A stretch of DNA of 12,800 nucleotides from UHGV virus genome UHGV-0178829. One strand, 5' to 3'. The notes below the pieces were generated by a model. It did not search any database, was not told where the DNA came from, and saw only the letters and a program-made list of their open reading frames with translations. This DNA comes from a virus. A program made the position numbers and the translations under genes. Of this stretch, positions 3,201 to 11,639 are shown in pieces; position 1 is the stretch's first letter; each line of letters starts with the position of its first letter.

Positions 3201-4987
3201 TCCACAACCTCCCCAAGCTGCGCATCTGTTAGCTCTTTATGCCAGAGACGAAAATTCCTCACATGCCCAAATAAATGGCGTAATCCTGCTGTAGTTTGTC
3301 CACCAATGCGAATGGTTGCTGTACTCCGGATATATTCCCATGTGGTTTTTGTTTCGCTGGATATACGCCCGTTACTTACTGCACATGTAGACTGATCTGA
3401 CTTTACACGCATCCCCATAACCATTTTTTTCAACGATGCGTTTTCGTTAACACGCCTATTTGATCCACCAATATCGCAATAAGGAAATCCGTCTGGCCCA
3501 TCTGCCGAAGATCCGAAGCCAAGAATAATAGCCGCTCCGGTTTGATGACCGCCGGTATCAAAAACACGTGGCGCTGCATTTGGCGTTTTATACCAGTTCT
3601 TATGTACCTCACAAAGAACCGTAAAAGGAAGATTATAAAGATTATTCTTAATTGGAACTGTAACTATATCGCTTGCGCGGGTCGCCGCCGTCGCTCCTGA
3701 TATAATAAAAGATGATACACAAGGCCCATCTTCTACTTGTGGGGTGGCCAGATAAATATAGTCACCAGATACGGTTGCCCCGCTCTGCTTAGGAGAATAC
3801 TGTATCTGAGAGCCTATTTTTAACTCCCCATCAATTGCCTGAATTGTTGCCTCTGCAAAAATCCATCCGGTAGCTTCGTCCTTTCTGACTCTCGCTGTAA
3901 TCCTTGAGGCAGCACCGCCTGTCATATTAATTTCAAGCGTTTGTGTATCAATATACGCATCACCAAGAAAAGTTGTTGCGCTACCGTCATATTTATCAAA
4001 CCGGATACGCAACCTTACCTGCAGTTCTGTTTTAAAACGACATGAGGTTGTCACGTGTTTATTATCGCCTGAGACATCAACTGACTTTGTTGCAGCAATT
4101 GATGCCATATTAATGGCTGAGGTTTGCCCAATCAGAGAATCGTTGCAGACAAACTTTCCATAGGTAAAACCAAAATTATCCGTCCCTGTTTCGGGCACAT
4201 CCATATTTGACGATCGCCCCCAACTGGCAGGGCTTTCCGAATTGAGCATGTAGTTTGTTCTTTGCCCCTCAATAAGCAGGCCATCACGTTCAAATCGTGG
4301 CTCGTCAATGGCAGCCTCTGTCAGCACACCAGATTTGTTAATATAGGTTGCTTTCGATGCACGTTTAAACTTAACAATCTTGTCGCCAGGCATCGTTATT
4401 TCATCGTCACCAATAACAATTTTTTTATATGACGGCGAAAAGCCCGTAATCATATCCAGTGAATCGTTAAACGGTATCCACACATCAGGCAGCGGCGGTA
4501 CAGACTCCTTTTCCTGCGCAACATATTCTTCAACATAGGCGCGGGTGGCGAGCACGACAGAGGGATCAACTTTCAGTTCGACAGACGAAGCACTGGAAAC
4601 CACAACAATCATGCGAATCGTCTGCGTGCGCCCGCTTCCCTCGGTGAGTACAGGCTTGTAGGTTTCGGGGCAGTTCGCCACGGCAATCATCACGCCGTCG
4701 CTGTCAAAAAGCCCAATCTCGCGGATCCAGAACCCCCCTTTATCTTCCGGGATAATCATCTCGGCGATAAGCTGGCTGGCATCAGACGCGCTGATGCTCA
4801 GTTGATTCAATGGGGCGCTGTATACCGTGTTCACCAGATTTTCCATGGAAGCCTCCGGTTCCGGCAGGCTGCCGCCGCCATCCCCCAGTTTCATGGTGGT
4901 GATGGATATTTTCGAGCCGCTGGCCACCGCCTTTGCCAGACGGGCGGCACCCTTGTCAGTCAGAACAGAAAAATATTTTACAGTCAT
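3197..4987 (-). CDS. Phage tail fiber protein (P2 gpH-like N-terminal domain; divergent C-terminal receptor-binding region ending in a LamG/concanavalin-like motif)
   Basis: Track ORF, 596 aa. N-terminal about 160 aa (MTVKYFSVLTDKGAARLA...ITTMKLGDGGG...IIPEDKGGFWIREIGLFDSDGVMIAVANCPETYKPVLTEGSGRTQTIRMIVVVSSASSVELKVDPSVVLATRAYVEEYV) aligns with remembered P2 gpH. The C-terminus ...GLRHLFGHVRNFRLWHKELTDAQL resembles the end of LamG-type jelly-roll domains. ATG at 4987 overlaps the upstream stop (ATGA). Confidence 0.85.
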   Translation of the reverse strand: MTVKYFSVLTDKGAARLAKAVASGSKISITTMKLGDGGGSLPEPEASMENLVNTVYSAPLNQLSISASDASQLIAEMIIPEDKGGFWIREIGLFDSDGVMIAVANCPETYKPVLTEGSGRTQTIRMIVVVSSASSVELKVDPSVVLATRAYVEEYVAQEKESVPPLPDVWIPFNDSLDMITGFSPSYKKIVIGDDEITMPGDKIVKFKRASKATYINKSGVLTEAAIDEPRFERDGLLIEGQRTNYMLNSESPASWGRSSNMDVPETGTDNFGFTYGKFVCNDSLIGQTSAINMASIAATKSVDVSGDNKHVTTSCRFKTELQVRLRIRFDKYDGSATTFLGDAYIDTQTLEINMTGGAASRITARVRKDEATGWIFAEATIQAIDGELKIGSQIQYSPKQSGATVSGDYIYLATPQVEDGPCVSSFIISGATAATRASDIVTVPIKNNLYNLPFTVLCEVHKNWYKTPNAAPRVFDTGGHQTGAAIILGFGSSADGPDGFPYCDIGGSNRRVNENASLKKMVMGMRVKSDQSTCAVSNGRISSETKTTWEYIRSTATIRIGGQTTAGLRHLFGHVRNFRLWHKELTDAQLGEVVE

Positions 4988-5760
4988 GAAAAAATCCTCA
5001 AAGAATCCTCCAGAAATACCACTGATGCTGTCAGGGTTCCGGTTGTGGCGGTCAGTTGCATCACCGCCTGTGGCTCCACGGTCACCGCATCATCGCCCGT
5101 AACCTGTAATCCCATGACAATCCCCGCATCGACAGATACCGACGGTGTCGGCGGGTAAATGGTGAGCATGTCGCCGTCAAAGAAAGCCGGAGATGCCCGG
5201 AACACCGAAACAGTCTCAACACCGGCAGAAGCGGCTGGCCAGATTGTTGTTTCACTGCCGTCGTGCATGCCGGAAAACACACGTGCGACTCCCTGCGTAT
5301 CCAGCATAATGTTCAGCGAGGCAAGGTGGCGGCTGACCGGACGGGCATCGTCGATCAGTCGTGTCAGCTCGGAGTACGTTTCCTCTGTGATACCCGCGTC
5401 CTGCACGCCAATATCAATGCGGAACGTGCCGCGCGGGTCGCCGTTCTGCCACCACTCCGTCACGTTAATGACATAGCCAAAGGGTTCAACCACACGCCTG
5501 ATGGCGCTGATGGTTCCCTTATGGCGGTGGATTGCCCAGGCATCACGGATCACCTGGCGCTTTGTTTCTTCCGTCCAGTCACGATCCCACCTGTCCACGG
5601 ACAGCGCCCACGCCAGATAAGGCAGCAGGGCTGCCGGGCAGGTGTCAGGATCCCAGAGCTGGTTAAGGCTGACAGGTAATGCTGACAACCGGGCGGTTCC
5701 CCGCTCCACGCAGCGCATGAAATCGCTGGCTGAAGGGGGGAGAAGTGACGGTTCACTCAT
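4984..5760 (-). CDS. Baseplate assembly protein (P2 gpI homolog) with a C-terminal extension of about 80 aa
   Basis: From the internal ATG at 5760: MSEPSLLPP...LWDPDTCPAALLPYLAWALSVDRWDRDW...KGTISAIRRVVEPFGYVINVTEWWQNGDPRGTFRIDIGV matches remembered P2 gpI (…LWNPDTCPANLLPWLAWAFSVDRWDEKW…). The track ORF extends to 5823 but that would overlap the J homolog by 70 nt. Confidence 0.85.
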   Translation of the reverse strand: MSEPSLLPPSASDFMRCVERGTARLSALPVSLNQLWDPDTCPAALLPYLAWALSVDRWDRDWTEETKRQVIRDAWAIHRHKGTISAIRRVVEPFGYVINVTEWWQNGDPRGTFRIDIGVQDAGITEETYSELTRLIDDARPVSRHLASLNIMLDTQGVARVFSGMHDGSETTIWPAASAGVETVSVFRASPAFFDGDMLTIYPPTPSVSVDAGIVMGLQVTGDDAVTVEPQAVMQLTATTGTLTASVVFLEDSLRIFS

Positions 5761-6649
5761 TGGTTCCCCCTGTGCTGACCGTGAACGATGTGCAGTACGC
5801 TGACTGCACATCACTGATAACAATATTCTGTGCGGGGCTGGTCAGTTCCACGCGCTGAACGCCCTGAACATGCAGTGCGGCCATGATGGCGGAGAGCGCG
5901 ACATCGCGACCGATTTTGCCCTGTTCGGCAAGCCAGGTTTCCAGATTGTTTCTGGCGGCATTCAGGATGGGTTCCGACTCCGGCCCCGGATAAAAGTAAA
6001 GCCGGGCATCAATCTGATACCGTATGATTTCTGCGCTCTGCACCGTCAGACGGTCACCGACCGGGCGAACGTCTTCGGCATTCAGCGCATTTCTGACCGT
6101 TGTCAGGAGTTCTTCGGTCGCCGTGCCGTCGCCTTCTGTGGACAACACTGTCACCACCACTTCCGCCGGTGCGGGGCTGGTTGCGCGCGCGTCCGCCACC
6201 TGACCGCTGGCACTGCGGGCAAAATATTCATACGCCCCGGTGGGACCGGCCACGCTGAGGCCATCAAATGCAGACTGCGCACGCAGCCGCAGGGCGGAGT
6301 CGCTTTCCATGACGGCCTCCGTGGTGTCCATGGCCGGTGTGATGACCAGCCGCGCGGTGTTCATGTTGGCAGCGAGGTTGTCCAGGTCATCACCTGTGGA
6401 ATGGCTCAGCATACAGGCCGCTGCGCCCTCATTAATGCGCTGGCGAAGCAGCAGTTCACGCAGCGCGAAAGCCTGGGCAATGACCGTGAGCGGTTCGGAC
6501 TCCAACGCCATGGCTGACCGGATGGCAGCCTGCTGTGTCTGTGGAAATGACGTAATGATGTCTTCTTTCACTTCCGCTAGGATGACTTCAAAATCCGGCG
6601 TTTCAATAATCTGTGGTGTCGGCAGTTCCGACAGGTCAACGGCTGGCAT
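5753..6649 (-). CDS. Baseplate assembly protein J (P2 gpJ homolog)
   Basis: Track ORF, 298 aa. MPAVDLSELPTPQ...VRNALNAEDVRPVGDRLTVQSAEII...LHVQGVQRVELTSP closely parallels remembered P2 gpJ along its whole length. Confidence 0.9.
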   Translation of the reverse strand: MPAVDLSELPTPQIIETPDFEVILAEVKEDIITSFPQTQQAAIRSAMALESEPLTVIAQAFALRELLLRQRINEGAAACMLSHSTGDDLDNLAANMNTARLVITPAMDTTEAVMESDSALRLRAQSAFDGLSVAGPTGAYEYFARSASGQVADARATSPAPAEVVVTVLSTEGDGTATEELLTTVRNALNAEDVRPVGDRLTVQSAEIIRYQIDARLYFYPGPESEPILNAARNNLETWLAEQGKIGRDVALSAIMAALHVQGVQRVELTSPAQNIVISDVQSAYCTSFTVSTGGTNE

Positions 6650-7001: not shown

Positions 7002-7579
7002 TGCGGGCCTCCTGTGCTGTCACCGCCGCTCTTCACGCCACTGTGTTTGTGCGTGTGCAGCGTCACACCGTTTGAGGTGAAATCACCGCCGCTGTGCGAG
7101 ATACTGCCACTCATGGTTCCGCCTTCTGTCACCTCAATCGTTGTCGTCTTCAGATGGTTTGTGCAGGTGACGGTGGGGGTATCCAGCGTCACGCCTGTTC
7201 CGGCCTGAATGGTGGCAGTTTTGATTCCGCTGGCGCTCAGTGCGCCAGCGTCCGCATCGTAGCGGAACACCGCGCCGTCAGGCGCTGTAACCACGATTTC
7301 CGTCAGGCTGCTGCCGGGCGCCGGATGTTCGCTGCTCCAGAGACTGCCGATGACGGACGCGGTCGCGGGGTCGCCACCGATGCAGGCAATCATGACCTGT
7401 TCGCCCACGGCAGGCGGCAGCCAGACGCTGAACGCGCCCGCGCGTGGTGTGTTCCAGCGCAGCCAGTCGGTTTCCAGCTCTCCGCTGCGCACGCGAACGC
7501 GCCACGTTGTTTCGTCCACGGCAAAAATCACGCCCGTGCGGATGATATTTGCAAGCAGTCGCATGATTTCCGCTGTCAT
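6998..7579 (-). CDS. Baseplate spike/hub protein V (P2 gpV homolog)
   Basis: Track ORF, 193 aa. ...SGIKTATIQAGTGVTLDTPTVTCTNHLKTTTIEVTEGGTMSGSISHSGGDFTSNGVTLHTHKHSGV... matches the remembered gpV C-terminal region. ATG overlaps the S stop (ATGA). Confidence 0.85.
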   Translation of the reverse strand: MTAEIMRLLANIIRTGVIFAVDETTWRVRVRSGELETDWLRWNTPRAGAFSVWLPPAVGEQVMIACIGGDPATASVIGSLWSSEHPAPGSSLTEIVVTAPDGAVFRYDADAGALSASGIKTATIQAGTGVTLDTPTVTCTNHLKTTTIEVTEGGTMSGSISHSGGDFTSNGVTLHTHKHSGVKSGGDSTGGPQ

Positions 7580-8214
7580 CGTGCTGCACTCCCCAGGGAA
7601 CGGATAATCGCGTCACGCATCCGGCGTTCGTCGGCTGCGGTCACACCCAGCAGTTCACGCACCGGGTAGGTGGTCATCACGCCCGGTGTCACCTCGTCGC
7701 GTAACCCCGCCTGATGCACGCGGGCAATCCGCGCAGCCAGGCCATCAAAGCCCACCACAGCGCCTTCCGCATCTGAGCGCATTTTTAACCAGCGATATGT
7801 GCGAAGACGCGCGAACATCGGCGTGCTTTTCTTGCTGGTCTGGCGGGCAGACATGGACGATACAGCGAGGTATCGTTCAATATCATCGCGGTAAAACGTC
7901 CTCAGTGCGCCGCCACGGTCAGGGTCGCGCCCGATGATGGCGCGGCCTTTCCGGTAACGTTTGTGCCCCCACTGGCGCAGCGTGCGGACCTCGCCGTTCC
8001 AGACAAACTTCACCTCCCGGCGGGTGTGCATTACCTGCTGTTTTCGCGCCGGATACGGCGAACCGTCTGCGTTCTTCTGCGTACGGATACGCGCCTGCTG
8101 GCTCTGGCGCAGCGCCTGCCCGACAGCCCTCGCCGTGCGTGCACGTCCGGCGGTGGAAAGTCCGTTCAGGATGTCGCGGAAAACCGCGTCCGGGTCATGC
8201 GTCGTCGTGTTCAT
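7576..8214 (-). CDS. Phage virion morphogenesis / tail completion protein (P2 gpS family), 212 aa
   Basis: Track ORF at the gpS position between the R and V homologs. Basic protein with ATG at 8214 and an AAGGA SD. Family assignment is by synteny and general resemblance; it is longer than P2 gpS. Confidence 0.65.
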   Translation of the reverse strand: MNTTTHDPDAVFRDILNGLSTAGRARTARAVGQALRQSQQARIRTQKNADGSPYPARKQQVMHTRREVKFVWNGEVRTLRQWGHKRYRKGRAIIGRDPDRGGALRTFYRDDIERYLAVSSMSARQTSKKSTPMFARLRTYRWLKMRSDAEGAVVGFDGLAARIARVHQAGLRDEVTPGVMTTYPVRELLGVTAADERRMRDAIIRSLGSAAR

Positions 8215-8677
8215 CCGTCAAATCCTTAAAGGTCACATCCTCAACAATCAGCTCTCCCCAGGCTCCTGTCAGTGCGGCAGGCGGGCGGGGTTCCGGCAGG
8301 TGCACCGGATACAGTTCCCCCTGTTCATTGCGACAGACTTTCACGCGCTCGCGCACGGGAATTTCCAGTAACAGGTCGGTGCTGTCGTCGTCATTGACGG
8401 CAACGGAAAACTTAACGTCCTTGTTTTTCTCCGGGTTGAGCAGCAAATCCGGCTGGTTGTGCATGAGCCAGACAATCAGCGGCAGCATCAGCTCGTCGAT
8501 GTGTCCCGGAAAATCCATGACGAAGGCCACGAGCGTGTAACGGTAGACAAACGTCGGGGTTTCACCCGTGGTCTCAATACTTCCGCTTTCTGCAAACACG
8601 GTGAGTTTTTCCGGATTCGCGCGACACCACCGGGATGAGGCGGTGAGGGCTTCGCGCAGACGGTTCATTTTCAGCAT
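8195..8677 (-). CDS. Tail completion protein R (P2 gpR homolog)
   Basis: Track ORF, 160 aa. MLKMNRLREALTAS...YRYTLVAFVMDFPGHIDELMLPLIVWLMHNQPDLL resembles remembered gpR. Strong SD AAGGAGA 5 nt upstream of ATG 8677. Confidence 0.8.
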   Translation of the reverse strand: MLKMNRLREALTASSRWCRANPEKLTVFAESGSIETTGETPTFVYRYTLVAFVMDFPGHIDELMLPLIVWLMHNQPDLLLNPEKNKDVKFSVAVNDDDSTDLLLEIPVRERVKVCRNEQGELYPVHLPEPRPPAALTGAWGELIVEDVTFKDLTDEHDDA

Positions 8678-8686
8678 GACTTCTCC

Positions 8687-8980
8687 TTACGGTCGCATCC
8701 GGCGTTGTTGTTCGGTTGCTTTAATGGCTGCCTTGTCAGCGTTGCAGCTCTCCAGTGCGTCCAGCAGCCGGTCACTCCAGACGGCCAGTCCGCCCCACGT
8801 CAGCGGACGGGGCAGGGACGGCACCGGCGTTGGCTGTGTCAGACTTTCCGGCAGCGGTGCGTGCTGCGTCTGAGTGACCACGACGGGGCGCGGCGCGCTG
8901 TTGCAGGCGGTCAGCAACAGCGGCAGGCACAGCAGCAGCCGCGCACGGATTTTCCCGGAGTGTGTTGCGTATCTCTTCAC
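8687..8980 (-). CDS. o-spanin (Rz1/LysC-like outer-membrane lipoprotein), out of frame with and overlapping the 3' part of the i-spanin gene; proposed GTG start
   Basis: Within track ORF 8687..9133: ...KRYATHSGKIRARLLLCLPLLLTAC-NSAPRPVVVTQTQHAPLPESLTQPTPVPSLPRP... has a basic n-region, hydrophobic core, lipobox LTAC and a Pro-rich mature part. In-frame GTG at 8980-8978 is preceded by AGGAGGGAG. The upstream ATGs would give an implausibly long signal peptide. Confidence 0.55.
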   Translation of the reverse strand: MKRYATHSGKIRARLLLCLPLLLTACNSAPRPVVVTQTQHAPLPESLTQPTPVPSLPRPLTWGGLAVWSDRLLDALESCNADKAAIKATEQQRRMRP

Positions 8981-9218
8981 GGCGTTTTTCTCCCTCCTGA
9001 TTCCGGTGCTGCTCTGCGGCGCGGACCTGCGCCAGCAGGTCGCTGATGCCCCGGAGTTCCGCATGAAGTGCATCCACGGCGGCATTTGTTCCCGCCAGCG
9101 CCTGTTCGTGATATTCCCGGCGCGCCCGTTCATGCCCTGCCTGCCAGGCCAGACGCAGTGACACCAGATACAGCGCCCCCGAAAACAGGGCGACGACGGC
9201 GGCGGTGGTCAGCCTCAT
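8772..9218 (-). CDS. i-spanin (Rz/LysB-like; N-terminal TM anchor plus periplasmic coiled coil)
   Basis: Within track ORF 8772..9245, from ATG at 9218 (GGAG SD): MRLTTAAVVALFSGALYLVSLRLAWQ... then a charged helical region rich in A, R, E and Q. The ATG overlaps the lysozyme stop (ATGA). The o-spanin gene overlaps its 3' end, as with P2 lysB/lysC. Confidence 0.7.
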   Translation of the reverse strand: MRLTTAAVVALFSGALYLVSLRLAWQAGHERARREYHEQALAGTNAAVDALHAELRGISDLLAQVRAAEQHRNQEGEKRREEIRNTLRENPCAAAAVPAAVADRLQQRAAPRRGHSDAARTAAGKSDTANAGAVPAPSADVGRTGRLE

Positions 9219-9757
9219 TTCTGTTTCTCCACATCCCGCAGACACCAGGCGCGAAAATCGCTGCGGCGGTTAACCAGTCCCTGACTGCGCTTCCCGCCTG
9301 CATTCACAAAATCAGTGAGGCGGGCACACATCCGCGCCCAGTTATGCGCCTGTGCCTGTTTCCAGATGGTGGTGCGCTGGCGCTTACCGTTGCGGTCCCT
9401 GAACCACATCAGACCGGAGCACCCCAGATTGAAGGCTGCATCCGTCATCGCCTCGAAGGCCGACTGCGGCATGGCTGCCCCCTGAAAATTCTGGTTAATA
9501 CAGCTCTCCGCCCGCTGCATGTCATTCACCCAGCGACGGGCCACCTCCTGCTCGCTGTACAGGTGTTTCTGTACGTTCCCCGTGGAGCCGCAGCCCACGG
9601 TGGCAACACCCGCGATGTCCGTGTAGGGTGTGGCGCGGCAGTCTTCCCACGTGGCAATTTTTATCTGTGCCTCCTGTGAGGTGCGCAGTGCTTCAGGAGC
9701 CAGCGAGACACCCAGCGCCACAATCACGGCGGCGGCATATCGCTTAATGTTTTTCAT
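9215..9757 (-). CDS. Phage lysozyme (GH24, T4/P21-type endolysin) with an N-terminal hydrophobic segment (signal peptide or SAR domain)
   Basis: Within track ORF 9215..9841, from ATG at 9757: MKNIKRYAAAVIVALGVSLAPEAL... then WEDCRATPYTDIAGVATVGCGSTG (E-D-T catalytic pattern) and ...FVNAGGKRSQGLVNRRSDFRAWC, which parallel remembered P21 R21 lysozyme motifs. Confidence 0.8.
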   Translation of the reverse strand: MKNIKRYAAAVIVALGVSLAPEALRTSQEAQIKIATWEDCRATPYTDIAGVATVGCGSTGNVQKHLYSEQEVARRWVNDMQRAESCINQNFQGAAMPQSAFEAMTDAAFNLGCSGLMWFRDRNGKRQRTTIWKQAQAHNWARMCARLTDFVNAGGKRSQGLVNRRSDFRAWCLRDVEKQK

Positions 9758-10037
9758 CGTTATCCCGTTGCAGTGCGGCAAGCGCCCGTTGTTCACTTTC
9801 ATGAAGCCCGCGCGTTCCGGCCTGTGCCAGAATCTGTGCAATCAGCGCATTGCGGCGGACCTGCGCACGCTCCATGCGGCGACGGTGAAGCCAGCCCTGA
9901 AAGAGTGAAAGCGCACCCAGCAGCAGCCCGGCCAGCGCGATTTTTTCGCTGATGGTCATCGCGCCAATCGTGACCGCAGAGACGGAGGCGGCGAAGGCGA
10001 TGTGGTCGTAAATACTGCGAAAAAAACCTAATCCCAT
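9744..10037 (-). CDS. Putative holin (about 97 aa, two TM segments, charged C-terminal tail; pinholin-like topology)
   Basis: Within track ORF 9744..10187, from ATG at 10037 (the upstream part would overlap the gpX homolog): MGLGFFRSIYDHIAFAASVSAVTIGAMTISEKIALAGLLLGALSLFQGWLHRRRMERAQVRR.... It sits immediately upstream of, and overlaps by 14 nt, the lysozyme gene. Confidence 0.5.
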   Translation of the reverse strand: MGLGFFRSIYDHIAFAASVSAVTIGAMTISEKIALAGLLLGALSLFQGWLHRRRMERAQVRRNALIAQILAQAGTRGLHESEQRALAALQRDNDEKH

Positions 10038-10228
10038 AACTGCACCGTCTCCCGTGTTTTTTTCTCTTCCTGCTCCGGTAATTCCACTTCCTGTCCGGCC
10101 TCCAGAAAAATCTGTCCGCACAGCCCCGGATTGGCGGCCAGCACCTTTTCGGTCACGCCCTGCGTTGTGCCGTAGTGCCGGAAGCACAGCAGGTCAACGG
10201 TGTCGTCCTGTAATGCCTTCACCTTCAT
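10028..10228 (-). CDS. Tail protein X (P2 gpX homolog, LysM-like)
   Basis: From ATG at 10228-10226: MKVKALQDDTVDLLCFRHYGTTQGVTEKVLAANPGL...ELPEQE...VQLWD matches remembered gpX (MKTFALQGDTLDAICVRYYGRTEGVVETVLAANPGL...). The ATG overlaps the L stop (ATGA). The track ORF starts 2 codons upstream at a GTG. Confidence 0.85.
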   Translation of the reverse strand: MKVKALQDDTVDLLCFRHYGTTQGVTEKVLAANPGLCGQIFLEAGQEVELPEQEEKKTRETVQLWD

Positions 10229-10722
10229 CAGCACAGCCTCGCAAAGATGCGCGGTGCGCCCTGAATATCGGCAATGGCCCAGCGCACGTCGCGCCAGAGG
10301 TCACCGGTCTGGGCTTCCAGTGCGTCCGCTTTCCGGTCGCCCTGTTCGGTGGTGTCCACATCGCGCACGCGCTCCAGTATCAGGGCGCGGGTGGCGGCAT
10401 ACACCGCAAGACGGAAGCGGTGCACGTTGACGCTTTCGCCGTTCACGCGGGAAGCCGGAACGTCCGCCAGCGTGCGGTATCCGTCATTCATCTGCTGCGT
10501 CTGCCAGTTGCGCAGCTCACCGGTGACGTGTGCCACGGCTTCGGTTGCCGCGTGCATCAGGCGCGACGTGGTGGTGCGACCGGGCAGGCGCACGGCAAGA
10601 CGCAGCGCGCGCAGTTCTGTCTCCGGCCAGAAGTCGTCCGTGGTGATGCGTGCATCACCGTCGTCCGTGTCCGCGACATCCTCCGTCGCGGCAGTGATAC
10701 CGGGTTTTGCAATCATGCTCAT
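10228..10722 (-). CDS. Head completion/stabilization protein (P2 gpL homolog)
   Basis: Track ORF, 164 aa, in the gpL position between the M and X homologs. Acidic N-terminus (...DDFWPETELRALRLA...) and overall pattern resemble remembered gpL. SD GGAGG 7 nt upstream of ATG 10722. Confidence 0.75.
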   Translation of the reverse strand: MSMIAKPGITAATEDVADTDDGDARITTDDFWPETELRALRLAVRLPGRTTTSRLMHAATEAVAHVTGELRNWQTQQMNDGYRTLADVPASRVNGESVNVHRFRLAVYAATRALILERVRDVDTTEQGDRKADALEAQTGDLWRDVRWAIADIQGAPRIFARLC

Positions 10723-10753
10723 GACGAGCCTCCGTTAAAAAGTCAGGCGGTGG

Positions 10754-10801
10754 GCGAACGGTCAGAAGGTCGCGGAGTTAAAAAACCAGGTGACCGTTCG
10801 C
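10754..10801. repeat. Perfect 11-bp inverted repeat GCGAACGGTCA ... TGACCGTTCGC with a 26-nt spacer, in the intergenic region between the M and L homologs
   Basis: Read directly: 10754-10764 GCGAACGGTCA and 10791-10801 TGACCGTTCGC are exact reverse complements. Confidence 0.6.
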
Positions 10802-10841
10802 GCCGCCTGTCGCCGGGGCGAAGTCGGTATGCGTGAGAGTC

Positions 10842-11639
10842 TCACGCGGATTTTTTGCTTTTCCGTGTGGCAGTGGCTTTTGTGGCGCTCTTTTTGCCTG
10901 CCTTTTTCGTCACGGTTTTCGCGGTACTTTTGCCTTCCGCGTTGTTCTCCGCACCGTCGGTACTGGTCAGCTTTTTCACTGCACGGGACAGCGTGGCAAT
11001 CTCGCGCTTCACGCCCGCGTTCGGGTTCAGGTGCATCGCTTCGCGCAGCAGTTTCAATGATGAAGCCATACTGTCCGCATCGGTCAGACCACGGCGGGAA
11101 AAGGCGCACGCCTTGCAGAGTTTGGCGCGGACCTCGTCCGGCATGTCCCGACCGGCGATAATTTCCTGTAGCGTGTCCAGCGGGGCGATGTATCCGGACA
11201 AATCCGCGTCCTGGTCAGTGCCTGCCAGCGTCAGCACCGGGTTACAGATTTCCTCTGTCAGCAGCGTGGCGGCATCGCGCCCGAAGCTGTCCGGTGTGCT
11301 GAGGTTATGGCGTACCACGTACTCACCGATGCGCAGCGCCAGCGGCAAATCACCGCAGTCAACGGCCCAGACCATGAGGGTGACTATCACCTCATCCTGG
11401 CGTCCGCTGTCGCTCTCGAGCGTGCCGTCAATCCAGCCGGAAAAATCCGGCAGCAGCGTCTTTTTCAGTTCCGCTTTCGCTGCCTTTGACTGAATGCCTT
11501 TCAGTCGTGCCTGTGCCAGTCGCAGGCGATGCAGGATTTGTTCGTGAGCCGTGCGCACCGTCTGTGACTGACTGTCATCGGTCAGTCCGGCGCGTTGTGC
11601 CATCGTGCGCTGAAAATGCGCCTGTGCCGGTGTCAGCAT
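10842..11639 (-). CDS. Terminase small (endonuclease) subunit (P2 gpM homolog)
   Basis: Track ORF, 265 aa. MLTPAQAHFQRTMAQRAG...LLPDFSGWIDGTLE...DMPDEVRAKLCKA...NAGVKREIATL... and a Lys/Ala/Thr-rich basic C-terminal tail parallel remembered gpM (MTSPAQRHMMRV...DMPDEVRAKLHK...AGVKKEIERL...). Confidence 0.9.
   Translation of the reverse strand: MLTPAQAHFQRTMAQRAGLTDDSQSQTVRTAHEQILHRLRLAQARLKGIQSKAAKAELKKTLLPDFSGWIDGTLESDSGRQDEVIVTLMVWAVDCGDLPLALRIGEYVVRHNLSTPDSFGRDAATLLTEEICNPVLTLAGTDQDADLSGYIAPLDTLQEIIAGRDMPDEVRAKLCKACAFSRRGLTDADSMASSLKLLREAMHLNPNAGVKREIATLSRAVKKLTSTDGAENNAEGKSTAKTVTKKAGKKSATKATATRKSKKSA

Follow-up and report, generated by a model that had tools for sequence, protein, structure and literature searches.

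A probable SAR endolysin, a probable pinholin and overlapped spanin genes form the lysis cassette of a P2-like Escherichia coli prophage

The window analysed here, a stretch of 12,800 nucleotides from the virus genome UHGV-0178829, carries on its minus strand a four-gene lysis cassette at positions 8687-10037, made up of a holin, a lysozyme, an i-spanin and an o-spanin gene and flanked by homologues of the P2 genes X and R. To the base, the cassette runs from the beginning of the holin ATG to the end of the o-spanin stop codon; the open reading frames (ORFs) lie exactly where an earlier note, made from the letters of this DNA, had placed them, in the same order and with each gene overlapping the next. 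The genes around the cassette form a P2-type set of head and tail genes, and the cassette is the lysis module of a P2-like (Peduoviridae) E. coli prophage, in which it sits between X and R as part of the late operon for head and tail. The order and overlaps of the genes, the families to which they belong, their conservation and their residue patterns were observed directly, and they make it likely that this module acts through a lysozyme of the signal-anchor-release (SAR) type, a pinholin-type holin and a two-part spanin.

In the proposed course of events, the Sec system would export the lysozyme, whose weakly hydrophobic SAR segment, remaining uncleaved, would keep it inactive in the inner membrane, and the holin with its two transmembrane domains (TMDs) would build up in the membrane. 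At a critical level, the holin would form small holes that depolarise the membrane, the behaviour that defines a pinholin. With the proton motive force lost, the SAR segment would exit the bilayer, and the lysozyme would refold into its active form and degrade the peptidoglycan. After the loss of the wall, the spanin complex would fuse the inner and outer membranes. The membrane topologies, the SAR release, the hole size and the timing are the parts of this scheme that we infer.

The lysozyme gene (9215-9757, minus strand, ATG 9757) encodes a GH24 protein of 180 amino acids that belongs to the P1 Lyz clade and is probably a SAR endolysin. The protein matches Pfam PF00959 (Phage_lysozyme) at 2e-23 and the endolysin family phrog_7 at 2e-47, and among proteins of solved structure its best match is P1 Lyz (1XJT, 6e-32), the prototype SAR endolysin. 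An alignment with P1 Lyz and R21 had been proposed as a check: the catalytic triad E38-x8-D47-x5-T53 is present and aligned with that of P1 Lyz, with E38 and T53 invariant in the family alignment, and the family profile matches P1 Lyz at 2.8e-51 and R21 (3HDE) at 5e-10, the latter match existing at the profile level only. Moreover, the alignment with P1 Lyz begins inside the P1 SAR domain. SAR domains are marginal TMDs, i. e. weakly hydrophobic segments rich in Gly, Ala, Ser and Thr that follow one to three basic residues (PMC9239132). The N-terminus MKNIKRYAAAVIVALGVSLA, correctly quoted in the earlier note and described there as weakly hydrophobic and SAR-like, has just this appearance: the basic residues K2, K5 and R6 precede AAAVIVALGVSLA, then comes Pro21, and the segment contains no cysteine. 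For residues 8-24, the mean Kyte-Doolittle hydropathy is 1.94, the Wimley-White octanol value is a marginal +2.1 kcal/mol, and eight of the 17 residues are Gly, Ala, Ser or Thr; by comparison, the octanol values are -4.7 for the TMD of the i-spanin and -6.2 for TMD2 of the holin. From hydropathy and homologue alignments, the SAR-type segment was delimited as residues 1-24 (9686-9757, minus strand). Both sequence hallmarks of a GH24 SAR endolysin, the triad and the weakly hydrophobic N-terminal segment after basic residues, are present in the protein.

The holin gene (9744-10037, minus strand, ATG 10037) encodes a class II holin of 97 amino acids that matches the holin family phrog_1350 at 1.5e-18. 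The two TMDs claimed for it were recovered as two hydrophobic segments by hydropathy, the first of them SAR-like: TMD1 (residues 13-29, IAFAASVSAVTIGAMTI) has a SAR-like composition with 10 of 17 residues being Gly, Ala, Ser or Thr and an octanol value of -1.6, and TMD2 covers about residues 33-50, with the value given above referring to residues 33-49. A three-residue loop (S-E-K) links the two TMDs, and a highly charged C-terminal tail of about 47 amino acids opens with HRRRMER; this basic tail fits a predicted topology with both termini inside. The protein has, on hydropathy, the topology of a pinholin: it is small and has two TMDs, the first of which is weakly hydrophobic. A BLASTP comparison with HP2 hol (32% identity, E 8e-7, across both TMDs and the juxtamembrane region) marks the holin as a distant homologue of the HP1/HP2 holin, and the motif G37xxxG41 in TMD2 is invariant across 12 aligned sequences, HP2 hol included. 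The HP1 holin family is TCDB family 1.E.7 as cited in PMC7312051. In HP1, the deletion of hol blocks lysis and phage release, over-expressed hol kills E. coli without lysis or leakage of beta-galactosidase, Lys alone lyses E. coli, and phage release is sensitive to azide; the authors concluded that a pinholin and a SAR endolysin are at work in HP1 (PMC7312051). By homology to the HP1 holin, the holin of the window is probably a pinholin, and its holes would be of nanometre scale, depolarising the membrane without letting folded proteins out. As a separate observation, Met27-Thr28 at the end of TMD1 (Met27 codon 9957-9959) is nearly invariant in the holin family; an internal start at Met27, if used, would give a product with TMD2 only.

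The spanin genes overlap extensively. The i-spanin (8772-9218, minus strand, ATG 9218; 148 amino acids; phrog_214, Rz-like spanin, 1e-23) has an N-terminal TMD at about residues 3-22 (residues 3-19 give the octanol value mentioned above), a helical periplasmic domain and a conserved Cys91, and it is conserved in 10 related loci. The o-spanin (8687-8980, minus strand, GTG 8980; 97 amino acids) is an outer-membrane lipoprotein of the LysC family, with matches to Pfam LysC (PF23793; 9e-17, 61.2 bits against a gathering score of 27) and phrog_456 (5e-23); among the NCBIfam models, P2_Rz1 gave a sub-threshold match only. Its lipobox, L-T-A-C26 with Asn27 at +2, fits the consensus [LVI][ASTVI][GAS]C (PMC6139136), and a C-terminal cysteine is conserved as well. 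Conservation of the lipobox ORF in related prophages had been set as a test on which the earlier interpretation could fail, and the ORF is conserved together with its GTG: the lipobox is kept in 10 of 10 related loci, one of which reads MGC. In the overlapped architecture, the o-spanin gene begins within the i-spanin gene, is read in a different frame and has its end outside that gene (PMC6139136). The earlier note had the o-spanin gene overlapping the i-spanin gene and extending past it; we find that the two genes share 209 nt, and that the o-spanin gene extends 85 nt past the i-spanin stop codon. All features of a two-component spanin with the overlapped architecture of the P2 LysB/LysC type are present.

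The public annotation reads these spanin genes differently. In the RefSeq/PGAP record NZ_CP054353.1, lysC occupies 8687-9133 and encodes 148 amino acids, and nothing is annotated for the i-spanin at 8772-9218, so that the o-spanin would be translated from ATG 9133 and a separate i-spanin gene would not exist. We consider this start very unlikely, to the point of being nearly negligible: ATG 9133 lies 51 codons too early and 77 residues ahead of the lipobox cysteine, too long a leader for a lipoprotein signal peptide, and the upstream frame is not conserved and is closed by stops at varied places in the relatives, including an in-frame TAG 5 codons upstream of the GTG in the Edwardsiella locus (L002). 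Moreover, the other frame encodes the conserved TMD protein that matches phrog_214, and it is on record that annotations of overlapped spanin genes suffer from wrongly called starts and missing genes (PMC6139136). The start at GTG 8980, by contrast, is well supported. All 11 loci share the GTG, which precedes the lipobox cysteine by 26 codons. The middle T of the GTG, the third base of an Arg codon and the only one of the three bases free to vary in the i-spanin frame, never does so: the Arg codon over the GTG is always CGT, and the adjacent Arg codon is CGC, CGA, CGG or AGA. A GTG start with an upstream Shine-Dalgarno sequence had already been suggested, and every locus has a purine-rich element 5' of the GTG. 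In the window this element is AGGAGGGAG (8998-8990, minus strand, as read from the sequence), whose last GGAG ends 9 nt 5' of the GTG. The nearest in-frame upstream ATG in the window would place 55 residues before the lipobox cysteine.

For the lysozyme, the N-terminus might also be a cleaved Sec signal peptide, which would make the protein a secreted endolysin of the fOg44 Lys44 type and leave the holin only to kill or depolarise the cell. SignalP called the N-terminus of HP1 Lys a signal peptide (PMC7312051). Likewise, the hydrophobic core AAAVIVALGVSLA is short (about 13-14 residues), follows basic residues and ends with S-L-A, in agreement with the -3/-1 rule. However, Pro21 stands directly after this sole small-x-small site, i. 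e. at the would-be +1 position, where proline is generally known to block signal peptidase I, and it is invariant in 42 of 42 close homologues and still nearly so once HP2 Lys is added. Moreover, a sister lineage combines a cysteine inside the segment with a catalytic one. This is the arrangement of P1 Lyz, in which the retained, uncleaved segment supplies the activating thiol and the switch works only if the segment stays on the mature protein. Because of the invariant proline and the cysteine of the sister lineage, to which the reach of the alignment into the P1 SAR domain can be added, we take the segment to be probably uncleaved and a cleaved signal to be improbable. A little more room, though still not much, is left for the idea that the holin is a canonical class II holin that forms large holes and is paired with a SAR endolysin, as in the case of P1 LydA. 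A SAR endolysin as partner is no proof of a pinholin: these enzymes also work with canonical holins, as with P1 LydA/LydC (PMC9025707), and a SAR endolysin-holin system in N4 is named in the title of a 2026 preprint. The long charged tail, unlike S21 68, and the lack of a dual start point the same way. What makes a canonical holin unlikely is the SAR-like composition of TMD1, the homology to the HP1 holin, whose killing of E. coli set no beta-galactosidase free, and the position of the gene directly upstream of and overlapping the SAR endolysin gene, an arrangement typical of pinholins (PMC9025707). Besides the ability of SAR endolysins to work with canonical holins, several points weigh against the combination of a pinholin, a SAR endolysin and a GTG-initiated o-spanin that we prefer: The over-expressed HP1 holin was reported to have an unusual topology with its C-terminus outside (PMC7312051), and the topologies proposed for the cassette proteins rest on simple hydropathy and homology. 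The match of the holin to the Pfam HP1 holin family PF16080 is below threshold (20.9 bits against a gathering score of 28.8, E 3.6e-4), and an NCBIfam scan returned no model for the holin, nor one for the i-spanin. A dual-start antiholin was sought and not found, the codon before ATG 10037 being GTT with no second Met near the start. Finally, in several relatives the o-spanin GTG has an ATG nearby, either 7 codons before it or 5 to 10 codons after it, where the window has neither, and given these alternative ATGs start usage may differ between relatives.

Among the known systems closest to the cassette is that of HP1 and HP2 (hol-lys-orf25; Peduoviridae, Hpunavirus). Like the prophage of the window, these are P2-like myophages, and they have a small single-start holin gene that overlaps the lysozyme gene directly downstream, whose product resembles P1 Lyz and is hydrophobic at its N-terminus; a LysB-like gene comes next. 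The lysozymes of HP1/HP2 and of the window are about 40% identical. The differences are that the HP1/HP2 cassette lies after the tail tube gene rather than between X and R, that the HP1 holin has 78 amino acids and lacks the long charged tail, that HP2 Lys is of the P1 type, with a cysteine both in the SAR segment and at the catalytic position, whereas the lysozyme of the window has neither, and that no o-spanin has been described for HP1. Since HP1 and HP2 are Peduoviridae and such a pair has been described for HP1, a pinholin/SAR cassette in a P2-like phage is already known; the pinholin/SAR reading of the window is well supported by homology but not new. The cassette adds an enterobacterial example to the HP1-type pinholin/SAR-endolysin cassettes of P2-like phages, and it presents the lysis module between X and R as a replaceable unit.

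The earlier note had suggested a phage-21-type lysis strategy rather than the Y/K arrangement of P2. The part on P2 stands, as there is no similarity to Y or K, and the phage-21-like logic is supported by homology; as to descent, the comparisons place the cassette with HP1 and P1 and not with phage 21, to which the lysozyme is linked by the R21 profile match only. With S21 68 and R21 the window shares the proposed logic of a two-TMD holin with a weakly hydrophobic TMD1 and a SAR lysozyme, and R21 also resembles the lysozyme of the window in its canonical E-D-T triad, its cysteine-free SAR segment and the thiol-independent regulation that we would expect for the latter. Unlike in phage 21, the holin of the window has no detectable homology to S21 68, and the Pfam family of the phage 21 holin, Phage_holin_2_1 (PF04971), gave no match at E <= 0.01. 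Phage 21 has a dual-start antiholin and the window has none. The spanin genes of phage 21 are embedded in the lambda style, unlike the overlapped genes of the window.

P2 itself (Y, K, lysA, lysB, lysC) shares with the window the place of the cassette in the operon between X and R, the overlapped spanins and an o-spanin of the Pfam LysC family. In BLASTP searches against the P2 proteins, only X (53% identity, 1e-21) and R (38%, 9e-24) had homologues; E values for Y, K and lysA were above 0.1 in all three cases, the holin, the lysozyme and the i-spanin showed no similarity to Y, K and LysB, and the o-spanin is related to P2 LysC at the profile level only. P2 differs in that K has no hydrophobic N-terminus, lysC starts at an ATG, and lysA is present. 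The absence of a lysA gene between the lysozyme and the spanins, as stated in the earlier note, was borne out both by the empty BLASTP search and by the gene arrangement, which leaves no room for lysA because the lysozyme stop codon overlaps the i-spanin start. As X and R are the only P2 homologues, we conclude that the lysis module between them is a non-orthologous replacement.

The same module is present elsewhere. Phage phiT5282H (Novemvirus) and P2-like prophages of Klebsiella have the order X-hol-lyz-isp-osp-R with 66-69% nucleotide identity to the window, and RefSeq labels the genes of phiT5282H as holin, endolysin and Rz-like spanin. The differences lie in the lysozyme of phiT5282H, which is of the P1 cysteine type, and in its o-spanin, which has an ATG nearby. 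We also noted that the o-spanin gene of phiT5282H (L001; 2183-2551, minus strand) is unannotated, and that a 30-amino-acid "hypothetical protein gp32" is annotated just downstream at 2094-2186, with about 4 nt shared. The order was kept in 10 of 10 related loci that were fetched; the loci sharing it include, besides Enterobacter phage phiT5282H, prophages of Edwardsiella piscicida, Citrobacter youngae, Serratia marcescens, Brenneria populi and three Symbiopectobacterium genomes.

The cysteine pattern distinguishes the lysozyme of the window from P1 Lyz. Like P1 Lyz (1XJT, 1XJU), it has a cysteine two residues past the catalytic Glu (P1 C44, window C40) and four further conserved cysteines. In P1 Lyz, activation reportedly proceeds through disulfide isomerisation among the SAR residue Cys13, Cys44 and the catalytic Cys51, as Xu et al. 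are said to have described in 2005. The lysozyme of the window has Tyr7 at the position of the SAR cysteine, Asp47 at the catalytic position and Cys56 where P1 has Ile60. With neither a SAR nor a catalytic cysteine, it could not use the P1 switch, and its activation would have to depend on membrane release and refolding alone, which is the logic of R21. Hence, by its residue pattern, this lysozyme is P1-like in descent and R21-like, i. e. thiol-independent, in its predicted control logic. The same dichotomy is seen among the 42 close homologues: 26 have Cys at both the SAR and the catalytic position, 16 have Tyr and Asp, and mixed cases do not occur, although these figures count sequences and not independent changes, so that a single ancestral event is possible. 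The window belongs to the Tyr/Asp group, in which a Cys stands three residues past the catalytic Thr; the other group has Ile, Leu or Met there. C40 is invariant in both groups, and the Cys/Cys sister lineage shares the cassette context with the lineage of the window.

It is conceivable, though we would not favour it over its opposite, that in the Tyr/Asp group the P1 thiol switch has been replaced by a fixed C40-C56 disulfide and the canonical Asp, with control by membrane release only. In 122 representatives of the wider family (50% clustering), Cys/Asp/Cys without a SAR cysteine occurs in three distant members (P0073, P0090, P0125). A cysteine at three residues past the Thr without one at two residues past the Glu was seen in two cases, and most members of the Asp type that have the latter cysteine lack the former. 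We put the C40-C56 disulfide forward tentatively because the association of the two cysteines is not strict in these representatives. If it does form, these lysozymes would be a natural intermediate between control of the P1 type and of the R21 type, within one family and one cassette context. The lysozymes of the Cys type and of the Asp type in their matching cassettes would make a convenient natural pair to gauge how much the disulfide switch contributes to SAR control, a matter of modest weight for lysis specialists. An Asp-type SAR lysozyme of the P1 clade that lacks the SAR and catalytic cysteines and has Cys56 is the only mildly novel point of the cassette. Five other members of the wider family (P0063, P0074, P0075, P0088 and P0105) have E-x-C-x-x-C right after the catalytic Glu and Asp at the catalytic position, and most of them also have a cysteine in the N-terminal hydrophobic segment; they may represent a different arrangement of disulfide caging.

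The cassette lies between two homologues of P2 tail genes. Upstream, the homologue of tail protein X (10028-10234, minus strand; Pfam Phage_tail_X, 1e-19), for which RefSeq gives the start ATG 10228, has its stop codon at 10028-10030; downstream, the homologue of tail completion protein R (8195-8677, minus strand) matches Pfam P2_Phage_GpR at 7e-39. Like the best family matches of the four cassette genes, these two lie far outside what chance would give. The X and holin genes overlap by 10 nt, the holin and lysozyme genes by 14 nt, and the lysozyme stop and the i-spanin start share the sequence ATGA. These overlaps suggest that the cassette genes are translationally coupled. A scan of 7400-11000 revealed neither a sigma-70-like promoter nor a minus-strand terminator above shuffled expectation, which agrees with a cassette that is internal to an extended late operon, comparable to the O operon of P2.

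E. coli SCU-172 (NZ_CP054353.1) carries the region in its chromosome with 100% identity; at an identity of at least 94%, the region occurs in only 7 of 5426 complete E. coli genomes, and is thus a rare prophage. At about 60%, its G+C content clearly exceeds the value of about 51% that is typical of E. coli. Searched against the phage collection, the region gave no matches with megablast, and relatives surfaced solely with blastn, at 66-71% identity. In the RefSeq record of SCU-172, the holin is a "hypothetical protein", and other NCBI records list holins nearly identical to it as "phage tail protein". The chief value of the present analysis lies in correcting this public annotation, and the cassette is an example of the weakness of gene callers on overlapped lysis genes.

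Some further features of the prophage were noted outside the cassette. Between 1600 and 4800, a stretch that spans the tail-fibre gene and small downstream ORFs, the G+C content drops to 43-50% as compared to about 60% elsewhere in the prophage, which suggests a mosaic, recently exchanged host-range region. The gpI homologue at about 5301-5760 is marked by RefSeq as an incomplete pseudogene without its C-terminus; an ORF of 279 amino acids (4984-5823, minus strand) runs through it, with its end overlapping the start of the tail-fibre gene, and could be a fusion or a recombination scar. On the plus strand, positions 1-1441 contain the last part of the tape-measure gene and the tail gene after it, which converge on the tail-fibre genes of the minus strand; in P2, those operons run in one direction, and the plus-strand genes differ from that order. 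Finally, in the SCU-172 locus (L011, 17532-19201, outside the window), a gene for a DUF3800 protein and parM-like plasmid partition genes adjoin the portal gene, and such partition genes beside P2-type structural genes seemed unexpected.

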